From the NCBI GenBank assembly GCA_016200255.1, contig JACQFA010000008.1, positions 561-64,560 of the forward strand: DNA of 64,000 bases, in the 5' to 3' direction. Under the pieces are notes generated by a model that was not told where the DNA came from, ran no database searches, and saw nothing but the letters and a program-made list of their open reading frames with translations. Position numbers and translations under genes: made by a program. This DNA comes from Nitrospirota bacterium. Lineage in GTDB: Bacteria > Nitrospirota > Nitrospiria > JACQBZ01. Below, one piece after another: positions 8,293 through 62,827 of the stretch (its first letter is position 1; every line of letters begins with the position of its first letter).

Positions 8293-8295
8293 GCC

Positions 8296-9144
8296 ATGCC
8301 GCTCCAGACTCCCCGCATGACCCATCGGAAGAGTAACTTCGGAATCTCATTTCTGTTTCTTCCCCGCCGCCAACGGGAGGCGATCGAGCGCGTTTACGCT
8401 TTTTGTCGCGCACTGGACGACGTTTCCGACAGCGCGCTGGGCCCGGAAGAGAAAAAACGGCAGTTGGAATTCTGGCGGAACGAGTTGGACCGTTGCTATG
8501 CCGAAAAGGCGGAACATCCGATCACGGTCGCTCTTCAAGAAACGGTTCAGGAATTTAATCTCACCCGGACCTACTTTGAAGAACTGACGCAGGGGGTCGA
8601 GATGGATTTCACCGTCACCCGATACTCGAGTTTCGTCACTCTTTCCCAGTACTGCTACCGCGTCGCGGGCACCGTCGGACTGATCTGCCTTGAGATCTTC
8701 GGCTGTCCGGGTGAAAAGGACTACGCGGTTGCGCTGGGCATCGCGTTTCAGGTCACGAATATCCTGAGGGACGTCAAGGATGACGCCGGGCATGGACGGA
8801 TCTACCTTCCTCAGGACGATTTCTTGCGTTTCGGCTACAGCGAAAACGAATTATTGAACTCAACCTACAACGACCGGTTTGTGGAATTGATGCGGTTCGA
8901 AGCCGAACGGGCCGGCGATTATTTCCGGCGGGCGGCGGACCTGATCAAGCCAGAACACCGACGGCAACTCATCGCCTCCGAGATCATGGCCGCGATCTAC
9001 TCGACCCTCCTTCGGGAGATTAAGATTGCCCGGTACAACGTCTTTGATCAACGCGTCCGACTCTCCAAACCGCGCAAAGTCGCACTGGCTTTAAAAACCG
9101 CGCTGATGAACCGGATCGGCATCGGCCGGGCGATTTCGATATGA
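8296..9144 (+). CDS. hpnD: Squalene/phytoene-synthase-family protein, HpnD-like (presqualene diphosphate synthase).
   Basis: YAFCRALDDVSD and DAGHGRIYLPQDD motifs, paralogous to the upstream ORF. The HpnC versus HpnD assignment rests on gene order only. Confidence 0.65.
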   Translation: MPLQTPRMTHRKSNFGISFLFLPRRQREAIERVYAFCRALDDVSDSALGPEEKKRQLEFWRNELDRCYAEKAEHPITVALQETVQEFNLTRTYFEELTQGVEMDFTVTRYSSFVTLSQYCYRVAGTVGLICLEIFGCPGEKDYAVALGIAFQVTNILRDVKDDAGHGRIYLPQDDFLRFGYSENELLNSTYNDRFVELMRFEAERAGDYFRRAADLIKPEHRRQLIASEIMAAIYSTLLREIKIARYNVFDQRVRLSKPRKVALALKTALMNRIGIGRAISI

Positions 9145-10481
9145 CGCAGGTCCTGATCATCGGCGGGGGATTTGCCGGACTGTCGGCCGGCGTCGCCCTT
9201 GCGGATCAAGGCGCGAGGGTCACCGTGATCGAACAGCGTCGTATCCTGGGCGGCCGCGCCTATTCGGTCGAAGACGGAACGACGGGCGAGCTGATCGACA
9301 ACGGACAGCATGCGCTTCTCGGCGCCTTTCATGAAACCCAAAAATTTTTAAAAACAATCGGCACGGACGGCCTGATCCGGTATCAGGACCGCTTCCGGAT
9401 GGTCCTGGCCGAACCCGGCGGCGGCCGTATGACGTTGAAGGCCGCATCGCTTCCCGCCCCTTTTCATCTGGCGGCCGGCGTGGCTTTGTGCCGCGGCCTC
9501 TCGATGACGGACCGCTTTCATCTTCTCCGTGCCGGCCTCTCGATGCTGATGACCCGATCCCTTCCGGAAACGATGACCCTCAAGGACTGGCTGGACTCCC
9601 TCGGCCAGCCGGCATCGCTTCGCCAGCGATGGTGGTATCCCCTCTCGATCTCGGCCCTCAACGAACTGCCCCATCGCGCCTCGGCCGATCTCTTCTTGTG
9701 CGTATTAAAGCAGGCCTACTTCGGATCAGTCCGGGACTCTTCGTTCGGAATCATGACGGTCGGGCTGGGCGATCTCTACACCGAACAGGCCCGGCAATTC
9801 ATCGAAGCCGGAGGCGGGCAGGTCTTATGCAACACGACCGCGTTTCAACTGGCCTTCTCAGACCGGCAACTCGATGCCGTCGTGCTGCGAAACAGCGGTT
9901 CGATGACGGCCGATTACATGATCAGCGCCGTGCCGCATCATGTTTTACGGAAATTATTGCCGCCTGAACTGATGAAACAAGGCGCGCCGTTTGAAGCGCT
10001 GACGCACCTGGCCGAATCGCCCATGGTCTCGATCCATCTCTGGTTCGACCGGCCGGTGATGGACGAGGAGTTCATCGGACTGATCGACTCGCCGATTCAG
10101 TGGGTCTTCGACAAATCCCGTCTCTGGAAAGAGGGCGAAACCCAGGCCGGCGCGCTGGCCTGCATCACGAGCGGCGCCTACGACTTGATTGATCGCTCAA
10201 AGGAAGATCTAATTGCCCTCGCTCAGAATGAATTGGTCCGTTTTTTCCCGGAAGTTTCAAAGGCCAGACTCATTCATTCCCGGTTGATCAAGGAACGGAA
10301 TGCGACCTACTCCTGCACGCCCGAGGCCGAGCGATGGCGGCCGAAACAGGAAACGCCGTATCGAAATTTCTTCCTGGCCGGCGACTGGACCCGCACCGGC
10401 CTTCCCGCGACGATCGAGGGCGCCGTCACCAGCGGCCACCGCTGCGCTGGATTGATACTACGGGATAAGAGCGGCAATTAA
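9141..10481 (+). CDS. hpnE: FAD-dependent amine-oxidase-family hydroxysqualene dehydroxylase.
   Basis: N-terminal VLIIGGGFAGLSAG dinucleotide-binding motif. It lies immediately downstream of the hpnC/hpnD pair with a 4-nt overlap. Confidence 0.75.
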   Translation: MTQVLIIGGGFAGLSAGVALADQGARVTVIEQRRILGGRAYSVEDGTTGELIDNGQHALLGAFHETQKFLKTIGTDGLIRYQDRFRMVLAEPGGGRMTLKAASLPAPFHLAAGVALCRGLSMTDRFHLLRAGLSMLMTRSLPETMTLKDWLDSLGQPASLRQRWWYPLSISALNELPHRASADLFLCVLKQAYFGSVRDSSFGIMTVGLGDLYTEQARQFIEAGGGQVLCNTTAFQLAFSDRQLDAVVLRNSGSMTADYMISAVPHHVLRKLLPPELMKQGAPFEALTHLAESPMVSIHLWFDRPVMDEEFIGLIDSPIQWVFDKSRLWKEGETQAGALACITSGAYDLIDRSKEDLIALAQNELVRFFPEVSKARLIHSRLIKERNATYSCTPEAERWRPKQETPYRNFFLAGDWTRTGLPATIEGAVTSGHRCAGLILRDKSGN

Positions 10482-15167: not shown

Positions 15168-16187
15168 ATGACCTCTGCTGAAGTTGTCGCCGAATTTCGC
15201 CCCGCATGGTGGCTTCGCGGATCGCACCGTCAGACGGTCTGGCGGTCGCTGTTCGGCAGAGGTCCGGCGCCGCCGTACCGGCGCGAACGATTTGAGACAT
15301 CGGACGGCGATTTTGTGGACCTGGATTGGTTCGGATCCGGCGGTCGATCCGGCGACCGGCCGCTGGTGATCGTACTGCACGGTCTGGAAGGATCGTCCCG
15401 ATCACCTTACGTTCCCGGGCTGCTTCGCGAGGCGGCCCGGCGCGGCTGGGACGGGGTCGCCATGAATTTCAGGTCCTGCAGCGGCGAGATGAACCGGAGG
15501 CCGCGGTTCTATCACTCCGGCGAAACCGCGGACCTGGACGAGGTTCTCTCTTCACTGATCCATCATCGGCCCGGCCGTTCGATCGGGCTGGTCGGCACCT
15601 CGCTGGGTGGAAATGTACTGTTAAAATGGCTGGGCGAGCGCGAAGACAAGGTTCCCGAAGCCGTTCGGGCGGCCGTGGCGGTCTCCGTCCCGTTCGATCT
15701 GGCGGCCGCGGCTTATCAGGTCGACCACGGGCTGAGTCGGATCTACGGACGGAGGTTCCTTCGCACGCTGAAGGAAAAGGCGCTGGCCAAGGCCCGTCTG
15801 TATCCCGGCCTGCTCGACCCGGACGAGGTCGCCGCGATCCGGAGCTTCGCCGTTTTCGATGACCGCGTAACCGCGCTGCTCCACGGATTCTCAAGCGGGC
15901 GTGACTACTGGACGCGGGCGAGCGCCACGCCGTGGCTCGCGGCCATCCGGAAACCGACGCTACTGATCAATGCAAGCGACGATCCGTTTTTACCGGCAGC
16001 CTGCCTTCCCCATGACGCGGCGGCCAGGTCGCACTGGATCAAAACCGAGTTTACTCTACGCGGCGGGCACGCGGGATTTGTCGAGGGATGGCGGCCGGGA
16101 GCGGTTTCCTACTGGATCGATCGCCGGGCGATGGCCTTTCTCGATTCGGTCGTCTGCACCAAAGGTCGCACAGGCCCGGCTCCTTGA
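15168..16187 (+). CDS. Alpha/beta-fold hydrolase of the YheT/ABHD1-3 type.
   Basis: LVIVLHGLEGSS ... GTSLGGN nucleophile-elbow region. Length 339 aa. Confidence 0.75.
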   Translation: MTSAEVVAEFRPAWWLRGSHRQTVWRSLFGRGPAPPYRRERFETSDGDFVDLDWFGSGGRSGDRPLVIVLHGLEGSSRSPYVPGLLREAARRGWDGVAMNFRSCSGEMNRRPRFYHSGETADLDEVLSSLIHHRPGRSIGLVGTSLGGNVLLKWLGEREDKVPEAVRAAVAVSVPFDLAAAAYQVDHGLSRIYGRRFLRTLKEKALAKARLYPGLLDPDEVAAIRSFAVFDDRVTALLHGFSSGRDYWTRASATPWLAAIRKPTLLINASDDPFLPAACLPHDAAARSHWIKTEFTLRGGHAGFVEGWRPGAVSYWIDRRAMAFLDSVVCTKGRTGPAP

Positions 16188-16215
16188 CAAGTCGGCGCGG
16201 ATGCCTTAATCTATA

Positions 16216-16235
16216 TGTAGAACAATTGTTCTACA
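16216..16235 (+). promoter_or_regulatory. Perfect 20-bp palindrome TGTAGAACAATTGTTCTACA, the putative autoregulatory operator/promoter of the toxin-antitoxin operon.
   Basis: The sequence is self-complementary. It is centred about 32 nt upstream of the antitoxin GTG start and immediately upstream of AGGAG. Confidence 0.6.
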
Positions 16236-16257
16236 ATTATATAGAAGGAGAGCGCCC

Positions 16258-16527
16258 GTGAAGTTCGTTGCCGTAAGGGAACTACAGATCAATTCTTCCA
16301 GGATTCTGGACAAAGTCAAGAAGGGGGAAGACGTCGTTTTAACCCGATTAGGCAAACCGGAAGCGGCCCTGATTCATCTCACGGAGGACGAGCTCGATGA
16401 ATTCCTGGTGCTCCGTCATCCCACCCTGATGAAAGAACTTGAAAGCGCCTACGAGGAGTTCCGGAAGAAGGGAGGCATTACCCAAAAAGAGATGAAAGAA
16501 AGACTCCGTCGCCGTGGAAAACGTTGA
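16258..16527 (+). CDS. Phd/YefM-family type II antitoxin.
   Basis: VAVRELQ...SRILDKVKKGEDVVLTRLGKPEAALI N-terminal Phd/YefM fold motif. It overlaps the downstream toxin by 14 nt. Confidence 0.8.
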   Translation: MKFVAVRELQINSSRILDKVKKGEDVVLTRLGKPEAALIHLTEDELDEFLVLRHPTLMKELESAYEEFRKKGGITQKEMKERLRRRGKR

Positions 16528-16822
16528 CCTGATCTACGCCCCGCGCGCCCAACGCGATCTGCTGGATCTGCCCAAAAAGATAGTCGATCAAATCCTAAAC
16601 GACCACGACCTCCTGAAAACCCGCCCCTGGCCTAACACCAAAGTCAAAAAACTAAAAGGACATCCTTACCGGGAGCTGAAGACCGGAGATTATCGGTCTC
16701 TGTTCGTTGTTGAATCAAACACCGTTGTCTTTCTCCGCATCGTGAACCGGAAAGACCTCGAAACCGCCGTGAAGCGAATCGATCTCAGAACGCTCTGGCT
16801 GTGGTTGAGGGATAAAAGTTAA
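16514..16822 (+). CDS. RelE/ParE-family type II toxin.
   Basis: YAPRAQRDLLDLP ... LKGHPYRELKTGDYRSLFVV ... VVFLRIVNRKD. Small, basic, and translationally coupled to the antitoxin. Confidence 0.8.
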   Translation: MENVDLIYAPRAQRDLLDLPKKIVDQILNDHDLLKTRPWPNTKVKKLKGHPYRELKTGDYRSLFVVESNTVVFLRIVNRKDLETAVKRIDLRTLWLWLRDKS

Positions 16823-17046
16823 CACAGATACCGCTCCCTTGTTTCAAAAACCTCGTCATGGTCTCATGAATCCGGAAATTGATTTTTAAAAGGTTTCAGC
16901 GTACCCTCATTGGGAGGTCAAAAACAAATGTTTAATCCCAAGGCAGGAATGTGGTTTCTTTAGGGAATAGATATCCTGTTAAGTTCCGATGCTATCACTT
17001 TTGCGTTCGGGTTTGTGATGGCGATACAGAGGAATAAGAGACGAGC

Positions 17047-17844
17047 TTGAATATGGAAACTGTTCGTGTGAACTCAGTCGAGGAGTTTGCTTCCCGAGTG
17101 AGGATTTTTCGTAATAATTGGGATAAGGAAGAGCTGTGGTTTAGAGGTGAAGACTCCTCACGATACCGCAACCCATTACGTCCAAGCATCTACCGGCCAC
17201 CCCGACCTGCGATAGAACATGAGGCTCGGGAAAATGAGGACGAAACTCGGATCGAGTTCAGCCGGCGCGGGCACTCGCTCGTTATCGAGAGAACGCCAGA
17301 AAACGAACTGGATTGGTATATCCTCATGAGACACAATGAGGTACCTACTCGCCTATTGGACTGGACCGAAGCATCTCTGATTGCTCTTTTCTTTGCGGTG
17401 CGGGACCGCGGTAGGGCGAATTCCGATAACAGGACTGAAAGTGCTGCAGTTTGGGTGCTCGATCCTGAGTGGCTCAACAAGAAAGTTATTGGCAAGTATG
17501 AGTTTGTATTACCAAGCGACCCAATCATTAATAAATATCTCCCTGAACCAAGGAAAAGAAAGCCAAGGGGCTTGCTTCCGATCGCGATCCTTCCACGTTA
17601 CCCGATCCGTCAAATGCTGTCGCAAAGGAGCACGTTTACAATTCAGGGAGCTCCTAATGGTTTTGATTTAATAAGATCCCGACGGGGAGAGAGGCGGATT
17701 GCAAAGATCGTAGTTCGGAAGTCCAGCTTCGGCGATATACTTAATGATCTCTCTAGCTGCGGCATTGACGAAGCAACGCTCTTCCCGACCTTGACGGGTC
17801 TGGGCAAGGAAGTGACAGCACTTTACTTGAATTATTCTAAATAA
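17047..17844 (+). CDS. FRG-domain protein.
   Basis: Hallmark EELWFRGE motif near the N-terminus with surrounding conserved hydrophobic positions. It sits in an AT-rich islet. Confidence 0.6.
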   Translation: MNMETVRVNSVEEFASRVRIFRNNWDKEELWFRGEDSSRYRNPLRPSIYRPPRPAIEHEARENEDETRIEFSRRGHSLVIERTPENELDWYILMRHNEVPTRLLDWTEASLIALFFAVRDRGRANSDNRTESAAVWVLDPEWLNKKVIGKYEFVLPSDPIINKYLPEPRKRKPRGLLPIAILPRYPIRQMLSQRSTFTIQGAPNGFDLIRSRRGERRIAKIVVRKSSFGDILNDLSSCGIDEATLFPTLTGLGKEVTALYLNYSK

Positions 17845-18218
17845 ATTCGATATGTGGCCCCCTTTTACTCGAACGGCCCGCAACACGTTTACCGAAAATA
17901 TCGCACGGTGTTTACTGGTAGGAATGAACGAAAGTTATAAGTGAATCTTTTCTGGTTCCAAAATCAGTTCTTTCTGAGTTTGCCTATTCACAAAGGAAAA
18001 AACCGATGAAAGTCAAAGAATTTGTGGTATCGAAAAAGAACAGGTTTTTGAAACCTCCCTTTGTCAGATAAAAAGTGGGATGTGAACTTCTTCCTGAAGT
18101 CAATAGTTGAAAAAAATCGATATAGGGCGTAGATTACAGGCGAAAATTGTTTATGCAAGGAGGCGAGTGTGGCAAGTTACACAGATCCATTTAACGCTAG
18201 TTAGAAATCACGGTTGCA

Positions 18219-18659
18219 GTGGTGCGAGACATGGGTTCTACAGATATTGCGGCATGGTGGGGAGCGGTTGTTGCCTCTCTTGTTCTGTTCTGGGACGTGT
18301 ATAAATGGAAAGCAGAGGGACCGCGCTTGACAATGCGTTTATCGCCAAACATGAACATTTTTGGAGACCCGTTGCGGGAAGGAAAAAAATGGGTCACCGT
18401 AACAGTTTCGAACATCGGGAACCGTCCGACCACAATCAAGAGTGTTGGAATGGAGTACCATAGCAATTGGTTGAATCGGCTTCGAAATAGAGCCGAGAAG
18501 GCTGTTGTATATACAAATCCGAACGATCATTTCCCGCTTCCTAGACTTCTAAATCCAGGGGATGAATGGGTTGGCCTAATTCCTCAAGAGCGTCTCGACA
18601 AATGGGTGGATCTTGAAGATATGTCTCGAACAGGTCATGTGATGATTTGGCTATCGTAA
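18219..18659 (+). CDS. Hypothetical protein with an N-terminal transmembrane anchor, in the AT-rich islet.
   Basis: One hydrophobic helix (AAWWGAVVASLVLFW). A strong AAGGAGG lies about 60 nt upstream. No known domain recognised. Confidence 0.5.
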   Translation: MVRDMGSTDIAAWWGAVVASLVLFWDVYKWKAEGPRLTMRLSPNMNIFGDPLREGKKWVTVTVSNIGNRPTTIKSVGMEYHSNWLNRLRNRAEKAVVYTNPNDHFPLPRLLNPGDEWVGLIPQERLDKWVDLEDMSRTGHVMIWLS

Positions 18660-18768
18660 TCCCACAAGCAACGGGCAATGCGAAAACGGCTCATTTTCGC
18701 TGGCTCTTAAAGACTGATGCTCCGAAGGAGCAAGATCAGACTGGTAAAAGCTAAAACTATTTTAGAAT

Positions 18769-19788
18769 TTGGAGAAAACCTACCATGACCCAGTGGGGGA
18801 TATTCCTATGTTTCGATTTTGCGGTGTAGCTATTATTGTTGCCCTGGCGTGCCTCACGCCATGTCTTGTATTTGCGCAGGGACCAGCAAAGTGTGATTTT
18901 GAGACCGAACTCGGCAAGTTATACAGCGATGCACAAACAAAACGCGAAAATTTGGCAGTTCAGCAGAAGCAGGTGCTAGGTCAAATCAGAAAGATCATAG
19001 AAAATCTTCCCGAGAACAACAAACCAATTGGGGAGCAGTTAGACAAAGAAGGTCTTGCTAACTTTGAAAAGCTTAGAGAGAGACAATTTGTGCTGATGAA
19101 CGTGTCTCTATCGGAGAGCAAGCGCATGCGTGACATGCAGTTTTTTCGTAAGTTTGCGATCCTTGCAGAGAAGGATGTGCGGTTCCCGGAGATACCGCCC
19201 TCCGACCACCCTGATTTCATTGCTTACATAATGCTGACGTCTGCCCGTCAAATATTCCAAGGTAAAGTAGAAATATCAGAGGTGAAATTTGATCAGTGCA
19301 ATCTCGAAGCAGCCATCCAGACGATGGAGCAGGACGTGATTGATAGGGTCAATGCGAAGGACAATACAGCCCTCAATGAATTGCTGGGCTTACAGTCAAT
19401 GCTTGAGAGGAAATACAAGACAAAAGACTTAGATCCCCAAAAGATATCGGAAGCGGACCAGAAAGCCCTAAAGAAGGCTATCGAGAACAATGAGCCAATG
19501 CAGAGGTTAATAAATCTCGCGAAGGACTACGAGATCCTGAAGGTGCTTGTGAAAGCAAGCCAGCTGATATACGACATGGATAAGGAAGACATCCTGACAT
19601 ACGGTGCTGACGCAAAAAAAATCGGAAGCACACTCATGACCAAGGCAAACGCCGGTAAATATGGGGATATGGTAAAACGTGCGCATGCCGTCATGCTGGT
19701 GATGGACAAAAAGATTCCCTCTGATGACGCAAAGGATATAAAGAAATTGTCCGATGAAGCGGAGGCCGATAGAAAGGAAGCCAAGTAG
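18769..19788 (+). CDS. Hypothetical secreted alpha-helical/coiled-coil protein, in the AT-rich islet.
   Basis: Internal signal peptide MFRFCGVAIIVALACLTPCLVFAQG (the likely real start is about 18808). Charged heptad-like composition. No known domain recognised. Confidence 0.5.
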   Translation: MEKTYHDPVGDIPMFRFCGVAIIVALACLTPCLVFAQGPAKCDFETELGKLYSDAQTKRENLAVQQKQVLGQIRKIIENLPENNKPIGEQLDKEGLANFEKLRERQFVLMNVSLSESKRMRDMQFFRKFAILAEKDVRFPEIPPSDHPDFIAYIMLTSARQIFQGKVEISEVKFDQCNLEAAIQTMEQDVIDRVNAKDNTALNELLGLQSMLERKYKTKDLDPQKISEADQKALKKAIENNEPMQRLINLAKDYEILKVLVKASQLIYDMDKEDILTYGADAKKIGSTLMTKANAGKYGDMVKRAHAVMLVMDKKIPSDDAKDIKKLSDEAEADRKEAK

Positions 19789-20260
19789 ATAGACTGCATA
19801 TTACCAATTTGACCATTGAAAAGAACATGTCATCTGCTAACCACCTCCGAGGGATCGCTTCGCACCCCCAGACCCATTGACGTTATACTCTCTTTTTCCC
19901 GTAATCCTTAATTCTCTGCCATTGTTTCTTTGAGCATTAGTAGGTGAAAGCCACAAAGAATATTTGTGCTCAAGCCCACCACTCTCAGGCCAATTCCAGC
20001 CCACTCCACCAAATTAGCGTTTCTTTATAACTGTTTGCTGGAATTGGTTCATGTGGGATAGAGCAGGACGGAATAGATGAGTTAAACTTTTTAGAAGGCA
20101 GATGCTCTATTTTACCGTAAACTATCGAACTATAGATTTCGGACGGCGTCAGAATTCAGATGTTTTCAGTTTTGTAGAGACTGATTTCGTACGAACACCG
20201 TTACAGATAATATTTAAATTCGCTTCCGAACGTCGGGAAATAGGCCGAGATCATCGGCTC

Positions 20261-22339
20261 TTATCGCGCCTTCCTGCTGTTTTTGGACCGCGTGCGACTT
20301 CCCTTTCGCTCTTCCGGCGGGACGTCTTCCAGAACCATCAGAAGCTGTTTTTCGACGACCGCCTCGTTGAGCTTGACCGCAATCTCTTTGATCACGCCGT
20401 GCATCGGCGACAGGACGGCCGTCTCGACCTTCATCGCCTCGATGTTCATGATCTCCTCGCCCTCCTTTACGATGTCCCCGATCTTGAGGATGCGGTCTTT
20501 GTCCCCGATCCGCCAGACGTTCCCCATAATGGGGGAGGCGACCCGCCCGGGCACGGCCGGATCGGCAAAGCGCGGACCGGCCTTCTGGGCGGCCTTGCGG
20601 GACGGCATTTCGACGGGGAAGACATGCATCGTGCTGTTCACCGATAGAACAATATGCTTGACCCCGTCCACATCCTGGCCGATCGAAACCAGTTTGATCC
20701 TGTTGGGTTTTCCGTGGGTCTCAAAGACCGCCTCGCTTCCGAACTCCTTTAATCCGTCGAACCAGATCCCGGTCGGAAGCACCGTGGTGTTTCCGAAACG
20801 GGTCTGGAAGCGGATGAAGTCCACCGCCGCGCCGGGATGCTGCATGTAAAGCACCAGTTCATTCTCGGTAGGATGGCGGGCTATCCCTTTTTGAAGCTCC
20901 GTCCGGGCCCGCTCGACATCTTCGTCCGGCTTTTGGGCCAGCGGGGATTCTTCGAAACGCTCCCTGGCGACCTTCTCACGCCAGGCATCGCCGAATACGG
21001 ATTGATAGACCCAGTCGGCGGGCCATCCGAAGGGCAGCGGCCCGTAACGTCCCAACAACAGGTTTTTGAGATCATCCGTGGCGCGGGCATACAACCCCAG
21101 CAGCGACTCCTTTTCCTCCGGCTTGAGCGCGTCAAACGACTGCCCCTGCGCGATGAACCGCTCGCAAAGATCCAGAAGATCCTCGACCTGCTTGAGGCCG
21201 CCCTCCTTGTAGTGATACTGGACGATCCCTGCCCAGGTCGTCCAGGTGATTTGCGATCCCGGCGTGACATCGAAATATTTAATGAAACGGTTGCCGTTGC
21301 TCATCCCTCTCAATATCTGCGGCATGAGCGAAAGAAAGCCGCCCTTGGCGGCCTGTTCAAAGGAGCTGGGGAAAGCGCCGCCTGGCATCCGGTGCTCGGT
21401 GACTTTATAGGAGAAGCCGTGGAACTGGGACTCGAACTCCCGGTAATGACCGATGAAGCCGGTGACCGTCTCGGCCGCTTTGTCCGCCATGGGAAGATCC
21501 AGGCTGGTTGCTATCCCCATCTCTTGGAGGAGGGCCTGGACGGAGCGGACCGGCGCATGGCCGTAGTACCGCGTGAACGGGTCGTCCGTCACATCGAGAA
21601 TCTTCACCCCAGCCTTCGCCGCGGCCGCCAGGGCCGGAACGGCCAGACCGTCCGTCGCGTGGCGGTGGTACTGGATCACCAGATCGGGATATTTTTGAAG
21701 CAGGACGTCCGTCAACCGGGCGACCCGTTTGGGCGATCCCACCCCGGCCATGTCCTTGATGCAGAGGATGATCTCGTTCGTTCCGCCGGTGACCTTGAGG
21801 ATCTCGTCCGTCAATTTCCGGTAATAAGCATCGGTGCAGTCCTGCGAGACGCCGAAGGAGATGGCGGGTTGAAACAGCTTCCCGCCCTTCATCACCTCCT
21901 CCGCGATCGGGATCATGTTGGGAACGTAGTTCAGAAAATCGAAGCATCTCCACACGTCCACAGTCGGAAGGAAGGCCTTCACGGAAAGACGGATCACATT
22001 GCGGGGATACATCCGGTAGCCCCAGAGATTGGTCGAGCGGACCAGCGTCTGCGTCATCACGTCCGGCATCCGCTCCTTCCAGAGGATCGCCTCCTCGAAC
22101 GGATCGGTCATGTTCTGAAGGAGGTTCTGGTGGAAGCGGGCCCCGCCGTGGTTTTCGATCGAGAAATAACCGGACCGGTTGTAGAACGGGGCGAGACGGA
22201 TCAGGTCATACAGCGTGTGCCGGTTCTTAAAATCGCTCTGGCCGGTATCCCGCGGACCGGTGTTGGTGAAATAGACCCGCCGGTCGCTCCGGAGGGCGGC
22301 GATATTTTCGCGGGGGCTTTTTTTCGGATGGACCGTCAT
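20261..22339 (-). CDS. Large subunit of a two-subunit biotin-dependent carboxylase (carboxyltransferase plus C-terminal biotinyl carrier domain), of the pyruvate carboxylase subunit B / 2-oxoglutarate carboxylase CfiA type.
   Basis: Carboxyltransferase (HMGL-like) core around YHRHATDGLAVPALAAAAKAG. A C-terminal biotinyl-lysine motif EAMKVE. Confidence 0.8.
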   Translation of the reverse strand: MTVHPKKSPRENIAALRSDRRVYFTNTGPRDTGQSDFKNRHTLYDLIRLAPFYNRSGYFSIENHGGARFHQNLLQNMTDPFEEAILWKERMPDVMTQTLVRSTNLWGYRMYPRNVIRLSVKAFLPTVDVWRCFDFLNYVPNMIPIAEEVMKGGKLFQPAISFGVSQDCTDAYYRKLTDEILKVTGGTNEIILCIKDMAGVGSPKRVARLTDVLLQKYPDLVIQYHRHATDGLAVPALAAAAKAGVKILDVTDDPFTRYYGHAPVRSVQALLQEMGIATSLDLPMADKAAETVTGFIGHYREFESQFHGFSYKVTEHRMPGGAFPSSFEQAAKGGFLSLMPQILRGMSNGNRFIKYFDVTPGSQITWTTWAGIVQYHYKEGGLKQVEDLLDLCERFIAQGQSFDALKPEEKESLLGLYARATDDLKNLLLGRYGPLPFGWPADWVYQSVFGDAWREKVARERFEESPLAQKPDEDVERARTELQKGIARHPTENELVLYMQHPGAAVDFIRFQTRFGNTTVLPTGIWFDGLKEFGSEAVFETHGKPNRIKLVSIGQDVDGVKHIVLSVNSTMHVFPVEMPSRKAAQKAGPRFADPAVPGRVASPIMGNVWRIGDKDRILKIGDIVKEGEEIMNIEAMKVETAVLSPMHGVIKEIAVKLNEAVVEKQLLMVLEDVPPEERKGSRTRSKNSRKAR

Positions 22340-22356
22340 CTCTCTTCTCTTGGGCC

Positions 22357-23811
22357 CTACTGGGAATAAGGATTCTTCCCGAGCGCCGTGACCTCGGCGA
22401 TGAACCGGCTGATCTTGAGGATCTCGTCCTCGTCTTCCACGTAATCCAGAAGCCCGGAAAGATGGTCGTCGATGAAGTCCGTGTCGAAACGCCCCTCGAC
22501 GAAATCCGGATGGACCATGATCTTCTCAAGCAACGGGATCGTCGTCTTGATGCCCCAGACCGTAAACTCCGACAGCGCCCGGCGCATCCGCTCGATCGCG
22601 GTGGGCCGGTCCTTTCCGACGGAACAGATTTTCGAAACGAGGGAGTCGTAAAACGGCGGCACCTCGCAGCCCTGATAGATGCCGCTGTCGGCCCGCACGA
22701 ACGGCCCGCTGACCTGGCGCAGATAGGTGACGGTGCCGTAGGAAGGCGCAAAATCGTTCTTAGGGTCCTCGGCATTCACCCGGCACTGAATCGCATGACT
22801 CGCGATGCGGATCTCCTCCTGCCGCAGGCGGAGCGGCGTTCCCACCGCCATCCGGATCATCAGCCGGATGATGTCCAGCCCGACGATCATTTCGGTGACG
22901 GTATGCTCGACCTGGATCCGGGGATTCACCTCGATCGCGTAGTAGCGCCGATCGGGGGCGACCAGAAACTCGAGCGTGCCGGCCGTAACGTATCCGATTT
23001 CCTTGGCGGCTTTGACCACGACCTGGCCCATTTCGTTCCGGAGGCGGTCGTCCAACAGGGACGACGGCGCCTCCTCCACCAGTTTCTGGTGGCGGCGCTG
23101 GATGGAACATTCACGATCGCCCAGATGAACCACCCGCCCGAAGGCGTCCGCGATGAACTGGAACTCAATATGCCGCGCGCCGCGGATATATTTCTCCGCA
23201 TACACCTCGCCGCTTCCGAACAGTTTTTCCGCAATCGAAACGGCCCGTTCCAACGCGGATTTGGCCTGATCGGCCGAATCGACCCGTTGCATGCCGCGAC
23301 CGCCCCCGCCCGCCACGGCCTTGATGATGATCGGCCAGCCCGCCTCTTTCCCGAACGCCACGATCTCGTCGGCAGACTTTAGCCTTGGAAGACCGGGGAT
23401 GATCGGGACCCCGGCATCCGCCAGGGCCTTCTTGGTCGCGATCTTGTCCCCCATCCGGGCAATCACATCGGAGGTCGGCCCGATAAAAATCAAACCGGCG
23501 GAACGACAGGCCTGGGCGAACTCGGCATTCTCCGATAGAAACCCATATCCGGGAAAAACGGCCTCGCAGCCGGTTCTCCGGGCGGCATCCACCACCTTGC
23601 CGATATCCATGTAGCTCAGTTTCACCGGGGAAGGACCGAGATGGACCGCCTCGTCCGCAATCTTCACGTGATAGGACAGTGCGTCGCAATCGGAATAGCC
23701 CACCACCGCCCGGATGCCCAGCTCCCGACAGGTTCGGATCGTCCGGCAGGCGATCTCGCCTCGGTTGGCGATGAACAGTTTTTGAATCATTTTAGTCTTG
23801 GAATCAGGCAT
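22357..23811 (-). CDS. Biotin carboxylase subunit, of the pyruvate carboxylase subunit A / CfiB type.
   Basis: ATP-grasp biotin carboxylase motifs (KIATKKALADAGVP ... IIKAVAGGGGRGM ... EVNPRIQVEHTVTE). Confidence 0.85.
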   Translation of the reverse strand: MPDSKTKMIQKLFIANRGEIACRTIRTCRELGIRAVVGYSDCDALSYHVKIADEAVHLGPSPVKLSYMDIGKVVDAARRTGCEAVFPGYGFLSENAEFAQACRSAGLIFIGPTSDVIARMGDKIATKKALADAGVPIIPGLPRLKSADEIVAFGKEAGWPIIIKAVAGGGGRGMQRVDSADQAKSALERAVSIAEKLFGSGEVYAEKYIRGARHIEFQFIADAFGRVVHLGDRECSIQRRHQKLVEEAPSSLLDDRLRNEMGQVVVKAAKEIGYVTAGTLEFLVAPDRRYYAIEVNPRIQVEHTVTEMIVGLDIIRLMIRMAVGTPLRLRQEEIRIASHAIQCRVNAEDPKNDFAPSYGTVTYLRQVSGPFVRADSGIYQGCEVPPFYDSLVSKICSVGKDRPTAIERMRRALSEFTVWGIKTTIPLLEKIMVHPDFVEGRFDTDFIDDHLSGLLDYVEDEDEILKISRFIAEVTALGKNPYSQ

Positions 23812-34433: not shown

Positions 34434-35702
34434 TCATTGTGCTTCATATTTTTTAAAGATCAGACAGGCGTTTGTTCCTCCGAAACCGAACGAGTTCGAG
34501 AGGGCCGCGCCCGGCTGCGCCTTCCGCGCGGTGTTGGGGACACAATCCAGATCGCACTCGGGGTCCGGATTCTCGTAATTGATCGTGGGCGGAATGATGC
34601 CGTGAACCAGCGCCAGGACGGTAAAGACCGCCTCGATCCCTCCGGCCGCTCCCAACAGATGACCGGTCATGGATTTGGTGGAACTGACCGGGATCCGTTT
34701 GGCCTGGTCTCCGAACACGGTCTTGATCGCCAGCGTCTCGATTTTGTCCGCAAACGTGGAGGTGGCATGGGCATTGATGTAGCCGATCTCGTCCGGTTTC
34801 AACCCCGCATCCTTGAGCGCCAGCGACATGCATCGAATCGCGCCCATCCCGTTGTCCGGCGGCGCCGTGATGTGATAGGCGTCAGCCGTCATGGCATAGC
34901 CGACCAGTTCGGCGTAGATCCGCACGCCGCGCCGTCACGCCGACTCCAACTCTTCCAGCAGCAGCAGACCGGCGCCCTCGCCCACCACAAAACCGTCGCG
35001 TTCCCGGTCAAACGGCCGGCTGGCATGGATGGGGTCATTGTTACGCGTCGAGAGGGCGCGCGAGGCCGCGAACCCGGCCACGGCGAGAGGCGTGATCGCG
35101 GCTTCCGCCCCCCCGGCAATCATCGCGTCGGCTTCGCCCCGCTGGATGATCCGGAAAGCATCCCCGATGCAGTTGTTCCCGGTGGCGCAGGCCGTGACCG
35201 CGCAGGAGTTCGGCCCCTGCAGACCGTATCGGATTCCAATCTGGCCGGAGGCCAGATTGATGATCGTCATCGGAATGAAAAACGGGGTGATCCGCTTGGG
35301 GCCCTTTTCAATGAGGACATTGTGCCACTCTTCGATGGCATGGAGACCGCCGATCCCGGAACCGACATAGACGCCGATCCGCTCCGCGTTCTCCGTCGTC
35401 ACCTTCAATCCGGAATCATCCATCGCCATCTGGCTGGCCGCAATGGCGTAATGAATGAAGGTATCCATCTTCTTGATTTCTTTTTTATCGATATAATTCG
35501 CGGGATCAAAACCCTTCACCTCGGCCGCGATCTGCACCGGCATATCGGCTAAATCAAACCGCGTGATGCGGCCCACGCCGCTGATTCCATCGCAGAGGGC
35601 CTTCCACGTCGGCTCCACTCCGATTCCCAAAGGAGTCACTGTCCCCAAACCTGTCACGACCACACGGCGCTTCAGAACCACACCTCCCTTGTCATGCCGC
35701 AA
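34434..35702 (-). pseudogene. fabF: Beta-ketoacyl-ACP synthase II interrupted by an in-frame TGA at 34935..34937 (LEELESA[17 protein letters not shown]). The same frame continues for 163 codons to the natural TGA stop.
   Basis: The two ORF-track pieces (34935..35702 and 34434..34925) are in the same frame and together align end-to-end with FabF (E. coli ...[21 protein letters not shown]...). The stop replaces a conserved Lys/Arg position and is one substitution away from AGA/CGA. Confidence 0.6.
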
Positions 35703-35711: not shown

Positions 35712-35945
35712 TTAGGCCCGTTCTTTGATGTAATCAATGACGTTTTGCACCGTAAGGATTTTTTCGGCGTCTTCGTCCGGGATTTCGATTCCGAACTCCT
35801 CCTCAAAAGCCATGACCAGTTCGACCGTATCCAGCGAATCCGCACCCAGATCATCCACAAAGGAGGCATCCGGCGTCACATCCTCTTCATCCACTCCAAG
35901 TTGCTCGATAATAATCTTTTTCACCTTTTCATCCGCGGCTGCCAT
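35712..35945 (-). CDS. acpP: Acyl carrier protein.
   Basis: [20 protein letters not shown] phosphopantetheine-site motif. A GGGAGGTG Shine-Dalgarno sequence precedes it. Confidence 0.95.
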
Positions 35946-38908: not shown

Positions 38909-39997
38909 TCAGTCTCGTTTGGGGGAATGGAGATACTCTTCGTGCACTTTGTTGTAGAGGGCCATGCTCGTTTCGATATCTTTGTAGAGGGCCATGCTCG
39001 TTTCGATATCTTTCTGAATCCGTTCGTTTACCTGGCCCTCCGCCTGGGTCTTGGCCACCCGGATGGCGTTCTTGATCGCTTTGGCGGACGACCGTCCATG
39101 GCAGATAATCGAAATCCCGTTCACACCCAGGAGCGGAGCGCCGCCGTACTCGGCATAGTCCACCCGTTGCCGGAACCGCTGAAACGCGGGACGGAGGAAG
39201 AGATAGCCCAGCTTGCCTCCGAGCGTCGCCGCGATTTCGCGTTTTAAAAGCTTACCCAACGTATCCTCAAGTCCCTCGCTGATTTTCAGGGCGATATTGC
39301 CGATGAAACCGTCGCAGACAATCACATCGGCCGTTCCCGAATAAACGTCCCGGCCTTCGACGTTGCCGATGAAATTCAGCGGGCTGGCTTTGAGGATCTT
39401 GAAAGCCTCTTTGGTCACCTCGTTGCCTTTGGTATCCTCCTCACCGATGCTGAGCAGACCGATCTTCGGTTGAGTTTTTTGCAAAACCCACTCGGCATAC
39501 TCATGCCCCATGGTCGCGAATTGAAACAGATGAAGCGGTTTGCAATCGACGTTGGCGCCGACGTCCAGAAGGACGGCGCTGCCCGTCAAGGTCGGCAGAA
39601 CGGTTGCGATCGCGGGACGCTCCACACCCTGGAGCGGGCCGAGGATGAAGAGCGCGGTGGCCATGGTGGCGCCGCTGTTCCCCGCGCTGATCACGGCCAC
39701 GGCATCACCTTTTTTGACCTGTTCGGTCGCCACCCAGATGGACGAGTCCCGTTTTCGTCGGATGACAACGGAGGGGGCCTCTTCCATTTCCACTTTCTGG
39801 GCCGCATGCACAATGGAGACATCGAGCCCAGAAAGGTCATGCCGGCCAAGATCCTTTTGGATCACGGCAGAATCGCCGACCAGAAGAATCCCGATGCCGT
39901 ACTCTCTTGCGGCCAGAACGGCCCCTTCGACAATCGGGCCGGGCGCGCTATCCCCCCCCATTGCGTCAACGGCTATTTTTATTGAAGCGGCCGTCAC
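38909..39997 (-). CDS. plsX: Phosphate acyltransferase PlsX, carrying an in-frame 30-bp tandem duplication near its 3' end.
   Basis: PlsX fold (ICHGRSSAKAI). The C-terminus reads KDIETSMALYKDIETSMALYNKV. Confidence 0.85.
   Translation of the reverse strand: MTAASIKIAVDAMGGDSAPGPIVEGAVLAAREYGIGILLVGDSAVIQKDLGRHDLSGLDVSIVHAAQKVEMEEAPSVVIRRKRDSSIWVATEQVKKGDAVAVISAGNSGATMATALFILGPLQGVERPAIATVLPTLTGSAVLLDVGANVDCKPLHLFQFATMGHEYAEWVLQKTQPKIGLLSIGEEDTKGNEVTKEAFKILKASPLNFIGNVEGRDVYSGTADVIVCDGFIGNIALKISEGLEDTLGKLLKREIAATLGGKLGYLFLRPAFQRFRQRVDYAEYGGAPLLGVNGISIICHGRSSAKAIKNAIRVAKTQAEGQVNERIQKDIETSMALYKDIETSMALYNKVHEEYLHSPKRD
38951..39010 (-). repeat. Two perfect-but-one tandem copies of a 30-bp unit (TTGTAGAGGGCCATGCTCGTTTCGATATC plus one variable first base) inside the plsX 3' end.
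   Basis: 38951..38980 and 38981..39010 differ only at the first base. The result is an in-frame duplication of 10 amino acids. Confidence 0.8.
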
Positions 39998-40245: not shown

Positions 40246-40797
40246 TTATTTTTTAATGATCTTCTTCAATCTCTCTTGGAACGGCGTCATGGGTGGACCG
40301 GCCTCTTCCGCCACGCAACAGCACGCCAAACGGTTCTGGTCCGCCCCACATTGCGGGCAGAGCCCGCGACAGTCGGAACGACATAATGGGTAGGTTGGCA
40401 AGGCCAGCAGAATCTGCTATCTCACCAACTCCTCCAGATCCATCGTGTCCCCCGAGTAGGTGTGTTCGTCCAGTTCTTCCCGACGGAGTTCATGCAACTC
40501 ACCCGGCGTCGTTTCGGATACCGATTCCCGGGGCTCCACATTGACCTGAAACGTTGCGCGCAACGGAAACGGAATCGCCACAAGACACCGAACGCACTGA
40601 AGCTCCGCCTCCGCGTCGGCTGCACCCGAAACATACACCGTGCGCTCCATGACGACCAGACGAGATTGGACGTGAATCGGCGCCACAAACTTGATGCCGG
40701 AGTCTTCTAAATCAAGCGCCGCCGGATCCATCTCGAACTGGAGATCAAGCCCTTCTCGAGGGATATCGGACAACGAAATCCGCATACAAGACCTCAA
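40246..40797 (-). pseudogene. yceD: DUF177 / YceD-family protein (large-subunit rRNA accumulation) with an in-frame TAG at 40417..40419. The frame continues through QILLALPTYPLCRSDCRGLCPQCGADQNRLACCC to a TAA at 40246..40248.
   Basis: The called ORF 40417..40797 lacks the family's C-terminal Cys cluster. The 57 codons immediately after the TAG, in the same frame, encode the canonical LLALP..P.C..DC.GLC..CG motif. TAG is one substitution from GAG (Glu) at a typically acidic position. Confidence 0.6.
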
Positions 40798-45859: not shown

Positions 45860-47017
45860 TCAAATAACCGCATGAGGATGGCCTGAACGGACGGCTCGGA
45901 CGGTATCGAATTGTGCCGGATGAATGGTGCGGCCCTGCCACTGGAACTCCGCCAGTTCGAACCCGATCTCCTGACTGAGTTTTTCCAGTTCGAAAGCTAG
46001 TTCAAGATCTTTTTTGCCTTCGAGGTGTCGGCGTTCATACATCCGGTCCCAGCAGAGCAAAATGGTTTCTCCCAAACAACCAAACACCTCATCCTTATGA
46101 AGAAGCCCGAAATCAAAAGAGCAATCCATGCCGGATAGCCGCCCGACCCCTCCTTCAACGACGATTACATCCGGTCGATTCTCCATTAAATCCAGGGGGG
46201 TGCTGGTTGGCCGACTATCATCAAGAATAAGGGTTCCCGGAGGAAGATCGGCCGAATTCAGAACCGCTGAAATCGCATTGGTTGCCGCCACGATGATATC
46301 GGCTTTTTGCATCGGAGAAATATCTTTTGAGACTTCAATGGGGGCTTTTGTCTGCTTGGCCAGTTCCTCCCCGAGTTCGGTAAGCACTTTGATCCGACGA
46401 TCGACAAGAATAAGCCTTCCCACCTTTTCAGTCAACAGCTTACTCGTCAGTGAACCGACAAGGCCGGCTGCTCCGACAACAGCCACCGTGCAATCCTTTA
46501 GATCTAGTCCGGCCTTTTTGGCCAAATGCTCCGCACCCTGCTTGAGCAAAACAGACGTAAAGATACTACCGCTCGTAATCAAGGCCTTGACTCCGTCCAG
46601 CGACTCCCACTTCCCCCTCATAACCGATGCGGACAAAGCTCCCAGTCCGATCACTTTTGGACCCAACGTTTCACCGAGCCGAACGGAACGCAGGATTCTT
46701 TTTCGGGCCCGATCAAGATCCTTAAACATCTGCTCGGCCGTCAACGGACAGAAAACGACCCGCCCTCTCATTGGTTGACCCTCATGGGTTCTTATTCCAG
46801 AGATGGTCGGTCCAAAAACCGGCCAGAGGTGACGGGACAACCATTCGATAAACCAGCCCGGAGCCAATCGAAGCAAAGGGTACTTTCGATAAATGTCGGA
46901 GGGATAACGGGGATGGATGACAAAAACAAAGTCAACTGACCCGACCATAAATTGCACGATCGGCCTGGGGATCACATAAAGCAAACGATCGCGTAGGGTG
47001 CTCATTAAAGCTTTCAT
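45860..47017 (-). CDS. NAD(P)-dependent oxidoreductase resembling cyanobacterial long-chain acyl-ACP reductase (AAR family).
   Basis: Rossmann motif CTVAVVGAAGLVGS and overall collinearity with AAR (…ATVAVVGATGDIGS… / …LIDGGYP…). Confidence 0.5.
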   Translation of the reverse strand: MKALMSTLRDRLLYVIPRPIVQFMVGSVDFVFVIHPRYPSDIYRKYPLLRLAPGWFIEWLSRHLWPVFGPTISGIRTHEGQPMRGRVVFCPLTAEQMFKDLDRARKRILRSVRLGETLGPKVIGLGALSASVMRGKWESLDGVKALITSGSIFTSVLLKQGAEHLAKKAGLDLKDCTVAVVGAAGLVGSLTSKLLTEKVGRLILVDRRIKVLTELGEELAKQTKAPIEVSKDISPMQKADIIVAATNAISAVLNSADLPPGTLILDDSRPTSTPLDLMENRPDVIVVEGGVGRLSGMDCSFDFGLLHKDEVFGCLGETILLCWDRMYERRHLEGKKDLELAFELEKLSQEIGFELAEFQWQGRTIHPAQFDTVRAVRSGHPHAVI

Positions 47018-52317: not shown

Positions 52318-53688
52318 TTACTTCAGGCTCAGCATATAATCCGTCAGATCGTCCCGCTCGCTCGGACTCAACGGAAGCCGGGGCATGATCGATCCCGGCA
52401 CCACCGCCTGCGGATTATCGAAATGACGGTTGAGCCAGTCCCGGTCCCGGTCCTTTCCCACATAAGAAAGGTCCGGTCCCACGGCCCCGCCGGATCCGTG
52501 AATACGGTGACACCCGCTGCATTGAAGCTTAGAATAGACCTCCCGGCCTCTCACCACCGAGCGATTTGTAGTCGGAACGGAATAGATTTCCTTCAATGAA
52601 ACCGCCATCAGACCGAATACCAAAATCAAAAAAACGCCGCCGATCAGGATCGCCCTGGGACGCCGTGCCGGATTGCGCGCCGGGTTTCGATCCACAAAGG
52701 GCAGGAACATCAAAAGCGCGTAGAAAATCATCGGCAGGATCCAGGTCGCCAGGGGCTCGAACACGCCGTGGACGTATTTGAGGCCCTGGTAATAAAACAG
52801 AAAGTACCATTCCGGAATCGGCTTGAAACTCGTGTCGGACGGATCGGCCTTATCGGCGAGCGGAAACGGCAGCCCGACCGCCAGGACCGCCACGATCAGG
52901 AACACCCCGCCCGCCACGACGGCATCTATGAAGACCTGCCTCGGATAGAACGGCTCGCTGACGGGCCGGCGCCGTCGTTCCGTTTGAACCGCAGCACCGG
53001 CCCCCGCGGTTCTTTTTTCCTCAAACGAGCCGGCCGGACCGACCCGTCGTAAAATAAACAGATGAAGCGCGATGAAACCGAACGTCATCAGCGGAAAGAA
53101 AAGAACATGGAGCGCGAAGAAACGGCTCAGGGTCAGGGCCCCCAGGTTGTCGCCCCCCCGGATGATTCGAACCAGGACGCCGCCGATCCAGGGAACCGTT
53201 CCGACCATGTTGATGCCGATCTGGGTCGCCCAGTACGCCTTTTGGTCCCACGGCAGCAGATAACCGCTGAAGGCAAAACCAAGGGTCAGGAGAAACAACA
53301 CCACCCCGACCATCCACATCATTTCGCGCGGCGGTTTGTAGGCGCCGGCCAGATAGACCTGAAGCATGTGAAGCCCGATCGCGACCACCATGGCGCTGGC
53401 GCCCCAGTGATGCAGCCCTCTCACAAAGGCGCCGAACGTCACCGAGGTCATGATGAACTGGATGCTGTCGTAGGCATGATCCGGTGTCGGTGCATAGTAG
53501 ATGGCGAGAAAACTTCCGGTCAGGAATTGAAGACAGAACAGAAACAGGGTGGCGCTTCCGAAAACATAGACCCAGCTGGCGCCGCCGGGGATCGGCTCGT
53601 TCAAGAGCATCTCCCCGATTGGCGTCAGCTTCAGGCGTTGGTCCAGCCAGTGATAAACCGCTCGGATGATCGTCATGGCCCGCGTCAC
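52318..53688 (-). CDS. Cytochrome b (b6 plus subunit-IV-like) fused to a C-terminal monohaem cytochrome c domain.
   Basis: Cytochrome b haem-ligand helices (GLHHWGASAMV, ALHVLFFPL). C-terminal CSGCH haem-c motif. Confidence 0.85.
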   Translation of the reverse strand: MTRAMTIIRAVYHWLDQRLKLTPIGEMLLNEPIPGGASWVYVFGSATLFLFCLQFLTGSFLAIYYAPTPDHAYDSIQFIMTSVTFGAFVRGLHHWGASAMVVAIGLHMLQVYLAGAYKPPREMMWMVGVVLFLLTLGFAFSGYLLPWDQKAYWATQIGINMVGTVPWIGGVLVRIIRGGDNLGALTLSRFFALHVLFFPLMTFGFIALHLFILRRVGPAGSFEEKRTAGAGAAVQTERRRRPVSEPFYPRQVFIDAVVAGGVFLIVAVLAVGLPFPLADKADPSDTSFKPIPEWYFLFYYQGLKYVHGVFEPLATWILPMIFYALLMFLPFVDRNPARNPARRPRAILIGGVFLILVFGLMAVSLKEIYSVPTTNRSVVRGREVYSKLQCSGCHRIHGSGGAVGPDLSYVGKDRDRDWLNRHFDNPQAVVPGSIMPRLPLSPSERDDLTDYMLSLK

Positions 53689-54179
53689 AACTCGATCTGC
53701 TGGGATGTTCCGGACTTGAATTGCTTGTCGATGATAAAGAGCCGTCCCTCTTCCATTTTGACGGGCAGGCGATCCAACGGCCGCGGGGCCGGGCCGGCGA
53801 TGACTTTTCCATCAATATTAAAGATACTGTTATGACATGGACACTTGAAGGTGAGATCGTCCGAATCCCAATGATACCCGCATCCAAGATGTGTGCAAAG
53901 GGGCGCGAAGACCGTGACCCCCCCCTCCGTCTGACGGACGGCCCAGACCGATTTCATGGCGGTGGTTTTCAACCAGCCGTCTTGAACGGTCACGACATAG
54001 GTGAGTTCCCGTGGAATGCCGGCTTTTAATTCATCCACGGCGCCGGCTTCGGCCCAGTCCCGGGCCTGCCGACGGAAGGCCGGCGAAATCACGTAGCCGA
54101 CCAGGGGAATCGAAAGGGCCAGACCCATCAGGCCCATGATTAATGCCGTTGCGCGTGTAAGGAAGGTTCGCCGTTTCAA
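53685..54179 (-). CDS. Rieske [2Fe-2S] iron-sulfur subunit.
   Basis: CTHLGC...CPCHNS boxes. N-terminal transmembrane/Tat-like anchor. It overlaps the cytochrome b gene by 4 nt. Confidence 0.9.
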   Translation of the reverse strand: MKRRTFLTRATALIMGLMGLALSIPLVGYVISPAFRRQARDWAEAGAVDELKAGIPRELTYVVTVQDGWLKTTAMKSVWAVRQTEGGVTVFAPLCTHLGCGYHWDSDDLTFKCPCHNSIFNIDGKVIAGPAPRPLDRLPVKMEEGRLFIIDKQFKSGTSQQIEL

Positions 54180-57361: not shown

Positions 57362-57736
57362 CTACTCCCAGCTCCCGATGATCATCCCACTCGCGGCATC
57401 CTTGATCCAGGGGCGCCAGGACAACGTTCGTCCAATCCGATAATCGGCGTCGAACCGATAGGCATGCCCCGCCTCCGCCATAAAGGTATAGGTAACCGGC
57501 ATCGGGCCATAATCCCCCATATTATGCGACGCCCTCAAGACATGTTCGCCCGGAAGGATCTGCAGCTTGTTACGACCGGCAATCTTCACACCTTCGCCGT
57601 CCAATGTGTACACCGTCACGGCTCCGATCTCGAGAACGGCAATTTGATCACGCGTCCGTTCCGGGCCCGGATACATCTTGATCGCGCCGCAGCCCAGAAT
57701 CATCAGACCCAGGATCGAAATCAACAGCCGTCTCAT
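57362..57736 (-). CDS. Small lipoprotein, hypothetical.
   Basis: Lipobox ILGC. No recognised domain. Confidence 0.5.
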   Translation of the reverse strand: MRRLLISILGLMILGCGAIKMYPGPERTRDQIAVLEIGAVTVYTLDGEGVKIAGRNKLQILPGEHVLRASHNMGDYGPMPVTYTFMAEAGHAYRFDADYRIGRTLSWRPWIKDAASGMIIGSWE

Positions 57737-61606: not shown

Positions 61607-61705
61607 GGTTTCATTTTCTTCGTCTAAAAATGAGGCGCGACGAACCAAAGCTACATTGGATGATACCCTGATCAAGAGTTCGAATCAAGGAGGAAGGTGG
61701 CGATG

Positions 61706-62800: not shown

Positions 62801-62827
62801 CTGTTAATCCACCAGCATTAAAATTTC

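Follow-up and report, generated by a model that had tools for sequence, protein, structure and literature searches.

The fabF locus

The window, as the whole 64-kb stretch of DNA that was analysed is called here, carries on its minus strand a canonical cluster of genes in the order yceD-rpmF-plsX-fabH-fabD-fabG-acpP-fabF-rnc, in which fabF was found to be broken by one in-frame TGA (Table 1). In the minus-strand frame, the codons around it read GAA GAG TTG GAG TCG GCG TGA CGG CGC GGC GTG CGG ATC TAC GCC, and this TGA is the sole stop in the fabF frame between the stop of acpP (35712..35714) and the gene's own TGA (34434..34436). An earlier note on this DNA had described fabF as divided by an in-frame TGA into pieces of 255 and 163 amino acids lying in the same frame, and reading the minus strand bore this out. 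The two pieces are mechanical ORFs, however, while the start set by homology, a GTG at 35681 (MVLKRRVVVTGLG), gives 248 codons, the TGA and a further 166 codons.

The match to PF00109 in the 5′ part covers profile positions 2-252 of 252 and extends up to the last residue before the TGA, while the match to PF02801 in the 3′ part covers positions 1-119 of 119 and begins 7 residues past it. When the stop was replaced by Arg, the repaired protein aligned with positions 1-407 of 407 of the fabF equivalog profile TIGR03150 at 661.2 bits, above the cutoff of 493.75 bits, and it matched B. subtilis FabF (4LS5) and E. coli FabF (2GFW) in the PDB with E-values of 4.6e-165 and 6e-151, respectively. Moreover, the catalytic set is complete, with Cys165 (TACATG), His305 (NAHATST), Lys336 (STKS), His341 (TGHLLG) and FGFGGTN at position 398. 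What the gene does not have is both domains in one uninterrupted frame, as the TGA at codon 249 parts PF00109 from PF02801. Overall, fabF is a bona fide KAS II gene with one premature TGA. No second KAS I/II was found within the 64-kb window, where, according to the earlier note, FabF is the elongation condensing enzyme of the only FAS II cluster.

Table 1. Positions in the window of fabF, its in-frame TGA and the other features discussed in the text.
Feature	Position	Strand	Description
fabF	~35681..34434	minus	KAS II gene broken by one in-frame TGA
fabF 5′ part, codons 1-248	34938..35681	minus	KAS N-terminal domain including active-site Cys165; start set from ortholog homology
In-frame TGA, codon 249	34935..34937	minus	Context GCG UGA C
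fabF 3′ part, 166 codons and genuine TGA stop	34434..34934	minus	KAS C-terminal domain
GTG (Val253), four codons past the TGA	34923..34925	minus	Starts the mechanical 163-aa ORF; only conceivable re-initiation codon
7-bp hairpin	34910..34929	minus	CGGCGUG / CGGAUC / UACGCCG; starts 5 nt after the UGA
plsX tandem duplication, 30 bp	38952..39013	minus	Perfect, in frame, KDIETSMALY twice
yceD (DUF177)	40246..40782	minus	First gene of the fabF operon; interrupted by an in-frame TAG
In-frame TAG in yceD	40417..40419	minus	Context AGA UAG C; Glu in relatives

Codon 249 in relatives and selection on fabF

A comparison with orthologs, which the earlier note had proposed, showed a sense codon at this site in the relatives and a stop in none of them: approximately 120 close and 83 broader orthologs were free of a stop at codon 249, and all were full length. 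The best FabF protein matches (87-92% identity) came from MAGs of uncultured Nitrospirota/Nitrospiria, and the FabF of Candidatus Manganitrophus was 76-77% identical. A scan of the GTDB representatives with the FabF protein gave a top match of 77% identity. Furthermore, a protein search with the N-terminal fragment, aimed at split copies, yielded a best match of 94% identity, and every match was full length. In the JGI metagenomes, a 32-nt pattern laid over the codon, with the codon itself left free, was matched nine times by unrelated fabF genes, which had CGC, GTG or AAG at that place. Searches of the JGI metagenomes, the GTDB representatives and the protein collection gave no sequence of the same species, and look-ups of the exact RNase III and FabG products encoded nearby gave no record. 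The TGA is known from exactly one sequence. Across the collections searched, the stop was shown to be private to this genome.

Among the 120 closest homologs, column 249 was occupied by Arg in 105 (88%), followed in frequency by Lys (5), Ile (4), Gln (3), Leu (2) and Trp (1, in the ortholog P0112), and L, M, E, S and T were also seen in the 83 broader genomes. Cys never appeared there in the approximately 200 homologs checked. The codon had been placed previously at a conserved Lys/Arg position, a label that holds for the predominance of Arg but is only partly right, because the column also tolerates several other residues. As judged from these alignments, column 249 is a usually Arg yet permissive, variable position of the surface type, and not a redox site. 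Regarding the codons used by relatives, CGG was found in L081, L094 and L095/96, CGT in L084 and CAG in L082/83, while CGA appeared in 2 of 57 loci; across the window, CGA accounts for 140 of the 1206 Arg codons. A single step separates TGA from CGA or TGG; from CGG, the codon of the closest relatives, two steps are needed unless the lineage had CGA or TGG. The route from CGN to TGA probably passed through one of these two codons.

On either side of the TGA, the synonymous changes in fabF far exceeded the nonsynonymous ones. With respect to L081, L082 and L084, dN/dS was 0.146, 0.037 and 0.077 before the stop and 0.078, 0.067 and 0.150 after it, respectively. In addition, none of the 112 invariant FabF columns had a private change. 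The divergence from the nearest relative corresponds to a dS of 0.34-0.42, and any neutral period must have been at most a small fraction of that divergence. Apart from the TGA, fabF was shown to be pristine and to have stayed under strong purifying selection up to a very recent time. An old pseudogene in decay was discarded because no decay was seen downstream of the TGA, where dN/dS was 0.07-0.15, further stops, frameshifts and radical changes were absent, and both catalytic His residues as well as the Lys were retained.

Lesions in yceD and plsX

Two further lesions were found in the same operon: yceD is interrupted by an in-frame TAG, and plsX contains a tandem duplication. Neither is mentioned in the earlier note. 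The scans of codon bias for interrupted frames were noisy, flagging nothing but gene-gene junctions and fabF and missing yceD. The interruption of yceD was found because its Pfam match stopped short, PF02620 being matched before the TAG only over profile positions 1-66 of 119. The frame runs on past the TAG (DLEELVR*QILLALPTYPLCRSDCRGLCPQCG), and dN/dS was 0.04-0.10 over the 56 codons that follow it, where the second Cys cluster is encoded. At the site of the TAG, which is about 5.5 kb from the fabF TGA, Glu (GAG or GAA) was present in five out of five relatives, the change being a single G>T. On the other hand, the duplication in plsX (period 30, 2.1 copies and 100% matches according to TRF) sits in the variable C-terminal tail of the protein and is missing from L082, L084, L094 and L095. 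The coding sequence of the window contains no other perfect tandem duplication of notable size, and this one is an event of the mutation type and not of the base-call type, lying in frame in a tolerant tail.

A block of 21.7 kb was syntenic with L094 and L095, and the other 19 of its 22 genes aligned end to end and were free of lesions; outside this block, the Pfam and NCBIfam matches were full length. An ORF of 124 amino acids (57362..57736) was also considered as an interrupted frame and rejected, as it carries a lipoprotein signal peptide of its own and, though in frame with both neighbours, is a normal gene. The three lesions (fabF, yceD and plsX) fall within 5.5 kb, for which P is approximately 0.02 if they were uniformly placed, a post hoc value for the operon that was examined closest. 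Taking the sequence comparisons together, the fabF TGA is to be regarded as one of three young, lineage-private lesions in one operon and not as a special codon.

Reading of the stop and comparison with known systems

TGA terminates 23 of the 56 gene-like ORFs in the window, fabF included, at positions that agree with those of the orthologs, and a single in-frame TGA was found in 57,384 coding nt. The previous dismissal of a generalised recoding was upheld by these terminators, and a genome-wide reassignment of TGA to sense is, like the decaying pseudogene discarded above, exceedingly improbable. Hardly any credence can be given either to the insertion of selenocysteine at the fabF UGA. An in-frame UGA followed from 5 nt downstream by a GC-rich 7-bp hairpin is what speaks for it. 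However, the search for a SECIS-like hairpin that had been suggested returned no Rfam SECIS match at either the gathering or a permissive threshold (E<=10), and the fold was non-significant, the 91 nt downstream of the UGA having a z-score of 0.25, that is, no better than shuffled sequences. The hairpin sequence is identical in the uninterrupted, ordinary fabF genes of L085, L087, L091 and L092, and it is encoded by the conserved peptide RGVRIYAE; on this evidence, it results from the coding sequence and is not a recoding signal. Moreover, besides the lack of Cys in column 249, no relative has a UGA there, and the sel genes (selA/selB/selC/selD) and tRNA-Sec were absent from the 64-kb window.

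Other ways of decoding the UGA were rejected as well. Programmed readthrough is at odds with a stop that is unconserved in approximately 200 homologs, with the absence of a stimulatory structure and with an ordinary context, since TGA-C is also found at 8 of the 23 genuine TGA terminators in the window and is thus not special here. Nor does the selection signal give programmed readthrough an edge, because a low downstream dN/dS is expected equally from a young lesion. A +1 frameshift of the prfB type was rejected because FabF continues in the zero frame. The editing motif of the TadA type is UACG, and A-to-I editing of the UGA was rejected because the motif here is GACG and the fold places the site in no loop. 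The TGA is an unprogrammed point lesion of very recent date, be it a true nonsense allele or an error in a base, and the feature belongs to a known and common class instead of representing a new decoding mechanism. The candidates put forward in the earlier note (nonsense allele, sequence error and readthrough) were the right set, which the tools used here narrow.

Our preferred reading, with a probability of roughly 50%, is that of a genuine, very recent and unprogrammed nonsense mutation (Arg249, CGN to TGA), one of three private lesions of the operon. A less probable but serious contender is that the true codons are sense (CGA, CGG or TGG in fabF and GAG in yceD) and that the stops occur only in the deposited sequence, owing to low local coverage, damage-type C>T/G>T miscalls, polishing errors or a bad join, the duplication in plsX being then an untrimmed k-1 overlap or a contig join. 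Bacteria whose only elongation KAS is FabF, e.g. B. subtilis and Listeria, cannot do without it (PMC5206705), so that, short of a paralog, one would not expect a nonsense allele in the majority; here, an essential and otherwise perfect gene is struck by a stop present in no relative. Stop codons of two kinds (TGA and TAG) and a duplication of 30 bp (k-1 for k=31) come together within 5.5 kb, a clustering that suggests a local quality problem. Furthermore, the TGA lies within a near-pure G+C tract, a difficult template that reads GCGCGGCGGCGCGGCGCGCGG in orthologs, and the two differences of this tract from L081 are 12 nt apart and both C>T; the single G>T in yceD would also fit a miscall. In contrast, no indel or frameshift was found in the 56 genes and there were no N's, and the absence of indels counts against a long-read error regime. 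As just 3.45% of the substitutions in the coding sequence of the window create stops, two stops become likely only at approximately 20-60 errors per 64 kb, a rate that counts against a well-covered short-read contig and is hardly credible in any contig of 64 kb or more. A uniform random base error is, consequently, a poor fit to two stops without frameshifts. No private deviations were detected at 306 invariant columns of FabD, FabG, ACP, FabF and RNase III, which is a weak test with approximately 0.5 expected, and the duplication keeps the frame and affects a variable tail, as would be the case for a tolerated real mutation.

If the stop is real, most ribosomes would end at codon 249 and produce a fragment of 248 amino acids, which would keep Cys165 and lose His305, Lys336 and His341; without these three residues, the fragment should be inactive. 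A minority of ribosomes would pass the leaky UGA by means of a near-cognate tRNA, classically tRNA-Trp, giving full-length FabF. UGA is leaky with insertion of Trp, and the readthrough of catA86-TGA reached up to 6% in wild-type B. subtilis (PMC7918605). The inserted residue would be tolerated at column 249, where Trp is natural in P0112. Viability would come from this trickle of readthrough and/or from a KAS paralog outside the window; several fabF genes are carried by some bacteria (PMC8319022), while nothing useful was found in the literature on KAS paralogs of Manganitrophus. As a short-lived in-frame-stop polymorphism, the allele would be expected to disappear by reversion or purging.

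It is improbable that the leaky stops (UGA in fabF and UAG in yceD) are maintained through sufficient readthrough, or that FabF is made in two pieces, with the lipid operon tuned down. In the two-piece variant, translation would end at codon 249 and re-initiate at the GTG, and the halves of the thiolase fold would assemble non-covalently; a KAS II in two parts has no precedent known to us. The TGA falls exactly in the gap between PF00109 and PF02801, the in-frame GTG is located 9 nt after it, and both in-frame stops (fabF and yceD) are followed by C. The GTG stems from a change of Ala to Val that is rare in close relatives, as this column had Ala in 118 and Val in 2 of the 120 close orthologs; however, Val was found there in 20 of the 83 broader FabFs (24%), which are free of the stop. 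The GTG lacks a Shine-Dalgarno motif at a workable distance, the nearest GGAG being approximately 19 nt upstream. The C that follows the TGA is, as stated, shared by 8 of 23 genuine terminators, and a low downstream dN/dS, which would accord with a maintained stop, would be shown equally by a young lesion. In addition, such stops are held to be transiently advantageous in some cases by Belinky et al. (PMC7918605), but this one is conserved in no relative, and a stimulatory RNA structure is absent, given the z-score of 0.25. Doubtful to a slightly greater degree is the full proposal that the sole elongation KAS is made via a leaky UGA-C (decoded as Trp, Arg or Cys) or in two pieces and that, together with the amber codon of yceD, this throttles the operon. 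If true, the UGA in fabF and the amber at the head of the operon would constitute an operon-level throttle on membrane-lipid synthesis. All the remaining explanations together have only a very small chance.

The genuine nonsense mutation and the artefact bear on annotation alike. An annotation of the NCBI PGAP type would mark fabF and yceD as pseudo (internal stop), and both genes merit that flag for quality control, the stretch from 34.4 to 40.8 kb being suspect. Compared to other pseudogene calls due to an internal stop, fabF differs in showing no signs of decay and in being a normally indispensable gene, and an inference such as 'no functional FAS II elongation step' would be premature before the reads of this stretch are inspected. 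If the stops are real and there is no fabF paralog, this would be a natural case in which near-cognate readthrough sustains an essential gene, and it would bear on the time that deleterious nonsense alleles persist in slow-growing chemolithotrophs of small population.

Among known systems, selenoprotein genes of the fdhF type share with fabF the in-frame UGA and a hairpin, but fabF has no SECIS match, no pair of Sec and Cys homologs and no conserved UGA, and the position is not catalytic. Likewise, prfB (PMC12421855) is an essential gene with an in-frame UGA-C in its early or middle part, as fabF is; unlike prfB, fabF has neither the slippery CUU-U nor an upstream Shine-Dalgarno sequence, and it is the zero frame that continues instead of the +1 frame. 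The readthrough of UGA by tRNA-Trp in E. coli, Salmonella and B. subtilis offers a route to full-length FabF here too, as Trp is tolerated at the column, although fabF gives no sign of an enhanced or selected readthrough. Finally, in-frame stops are widespread in bacteria, of the age of SNPs and with dN/dS<1 (Belinky et al. 2021, PMC7918605). In that study, the stop had to be present in at least two genomes as a guard against artefacts, while the fabF stop comes from one sequence only. In other respects, fabF resembles those short-lived polymorphisms, with a single stop that is private and confined to the immediate lineage, flanks whose dN/dS is well below 1 (0.04-0.15) and a TGA that is a leaky codon.

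Interruptions and repeats in the fabF operon

By sequence comparison, a second in-frame stop was found in the operon of fabF (the KAS II gene), namely a TAG within yceD, the DUF177 gene at its head. All five relatives presented Glu at this site (GAG or GAA), and the 56 codons located 3′ of the TAG, among them a CxxC cluster, retained their conservation, with dN/dS values of 0.04-0.10. Regarding the in-frame TGA of fabF, the tract around it differed from L081, the locus of a close relative taken as reference, at two positions, both being C>T changes at CpG that lay 12 nt apart, one at position 1 of CGG>TGA and the other converting GCG to GTG. This could point to a hot spot of deamination or to a template that is hard to sequence.

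Furthermore, the duplication in the plsX tail was not present in the four relatives compared, and it was the only repeat of its kind in the coding sequence of the window. Since it is exactly k-1 long for k=31, the duplication is possibly an artefact of a contig join.

Features located in the window
Feature	Coordinates	Strand	Remarks
Multicopper oxidase, 837 aa	1266..3779		Faint similarity to MnxG
HpnC/HpnD/HpnE-like squalene synthesis set	7384..10481		
Big_5/FG-GAP/CopC-domain protein, 1377 aa	10660..14793		
Phd/YefM-ParE toxin-antitoxin pair	16258..16822		Inside low-GC island 16000..20000
FRG-domain protein	17047..17844		Inside low-GC island 16000..20000
Two-subunit biotin carboxylase pair	20261..23811		Pyruvate or 2-oxoglutarate carboxylase type
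G+C tract around fabF TGA	34915..34945	minus	Nearly 100% G+C in orthologs, GCGCGGCGGCGCGGCGCGCGG
plsX 3′ tail	38952..39013	minus	Perfect 30-bp in-frame tandem duplication, KDIETSMALY x2
yceD	40246..40782	minus	In-frame TAG at 40417..40419; same operon as fabF
385-aa protein	45860..47017		Weak matches only
Cytochrome b with fused C-terminal cytochrome c domain, 456 aa, and adjoining Rieske protein	52318..54179		
12-nt x2 repeat	61422..61445		Region 61274..64000
tRNA-Arg(CCT)	61534..61606		Region 61274..64000
LAGLIDADG-domain protein, 364 aa	61706..62800		In 41% GC stretch beyond tRNA-Arg(CCT)

Low-GC regions

The island at 16000..20000 showed 45-49% GC, compared to 56% overall. Two of its ORFs had no family match. 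The island probably represents an islet that is mobile or serves in defence. In the region 61274..64000, the stretch of 41% GC comes after the tRNA gene and includes a 250-aa ORF for which no match was found. This region looks like an element integrated beside tRNA-Arg(CCT).

Metabolic and redox genes

The carboxylase pair, comprising a carboxyltransferase/BCCP subunit (692 aa) and a biotin carboxylase (484 aa), fits with carbon fixation of the reductive-TCA type in the clade. The squalene synthesis set consisted of two squalene/phytoene synthase paralogs in tandem and an amine-oxidase-type flavoprotein. The 385-aa protein showed only weak similarity to acyl-ACP reductase, to the N-terminal region of PigE and to the glutamyl-tRNA reductase NAD(P) domain. 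Moreover, the cytochrome b-c fusion beside the Rieske protein is a bc-type complex in an unusual arrangement. Finally, the multicopper oxidase and the Big_5/FG-GAP/CopC protein may be of interest in view of the relationship to the manganese-oxidising Candidatus Manganitrophus.
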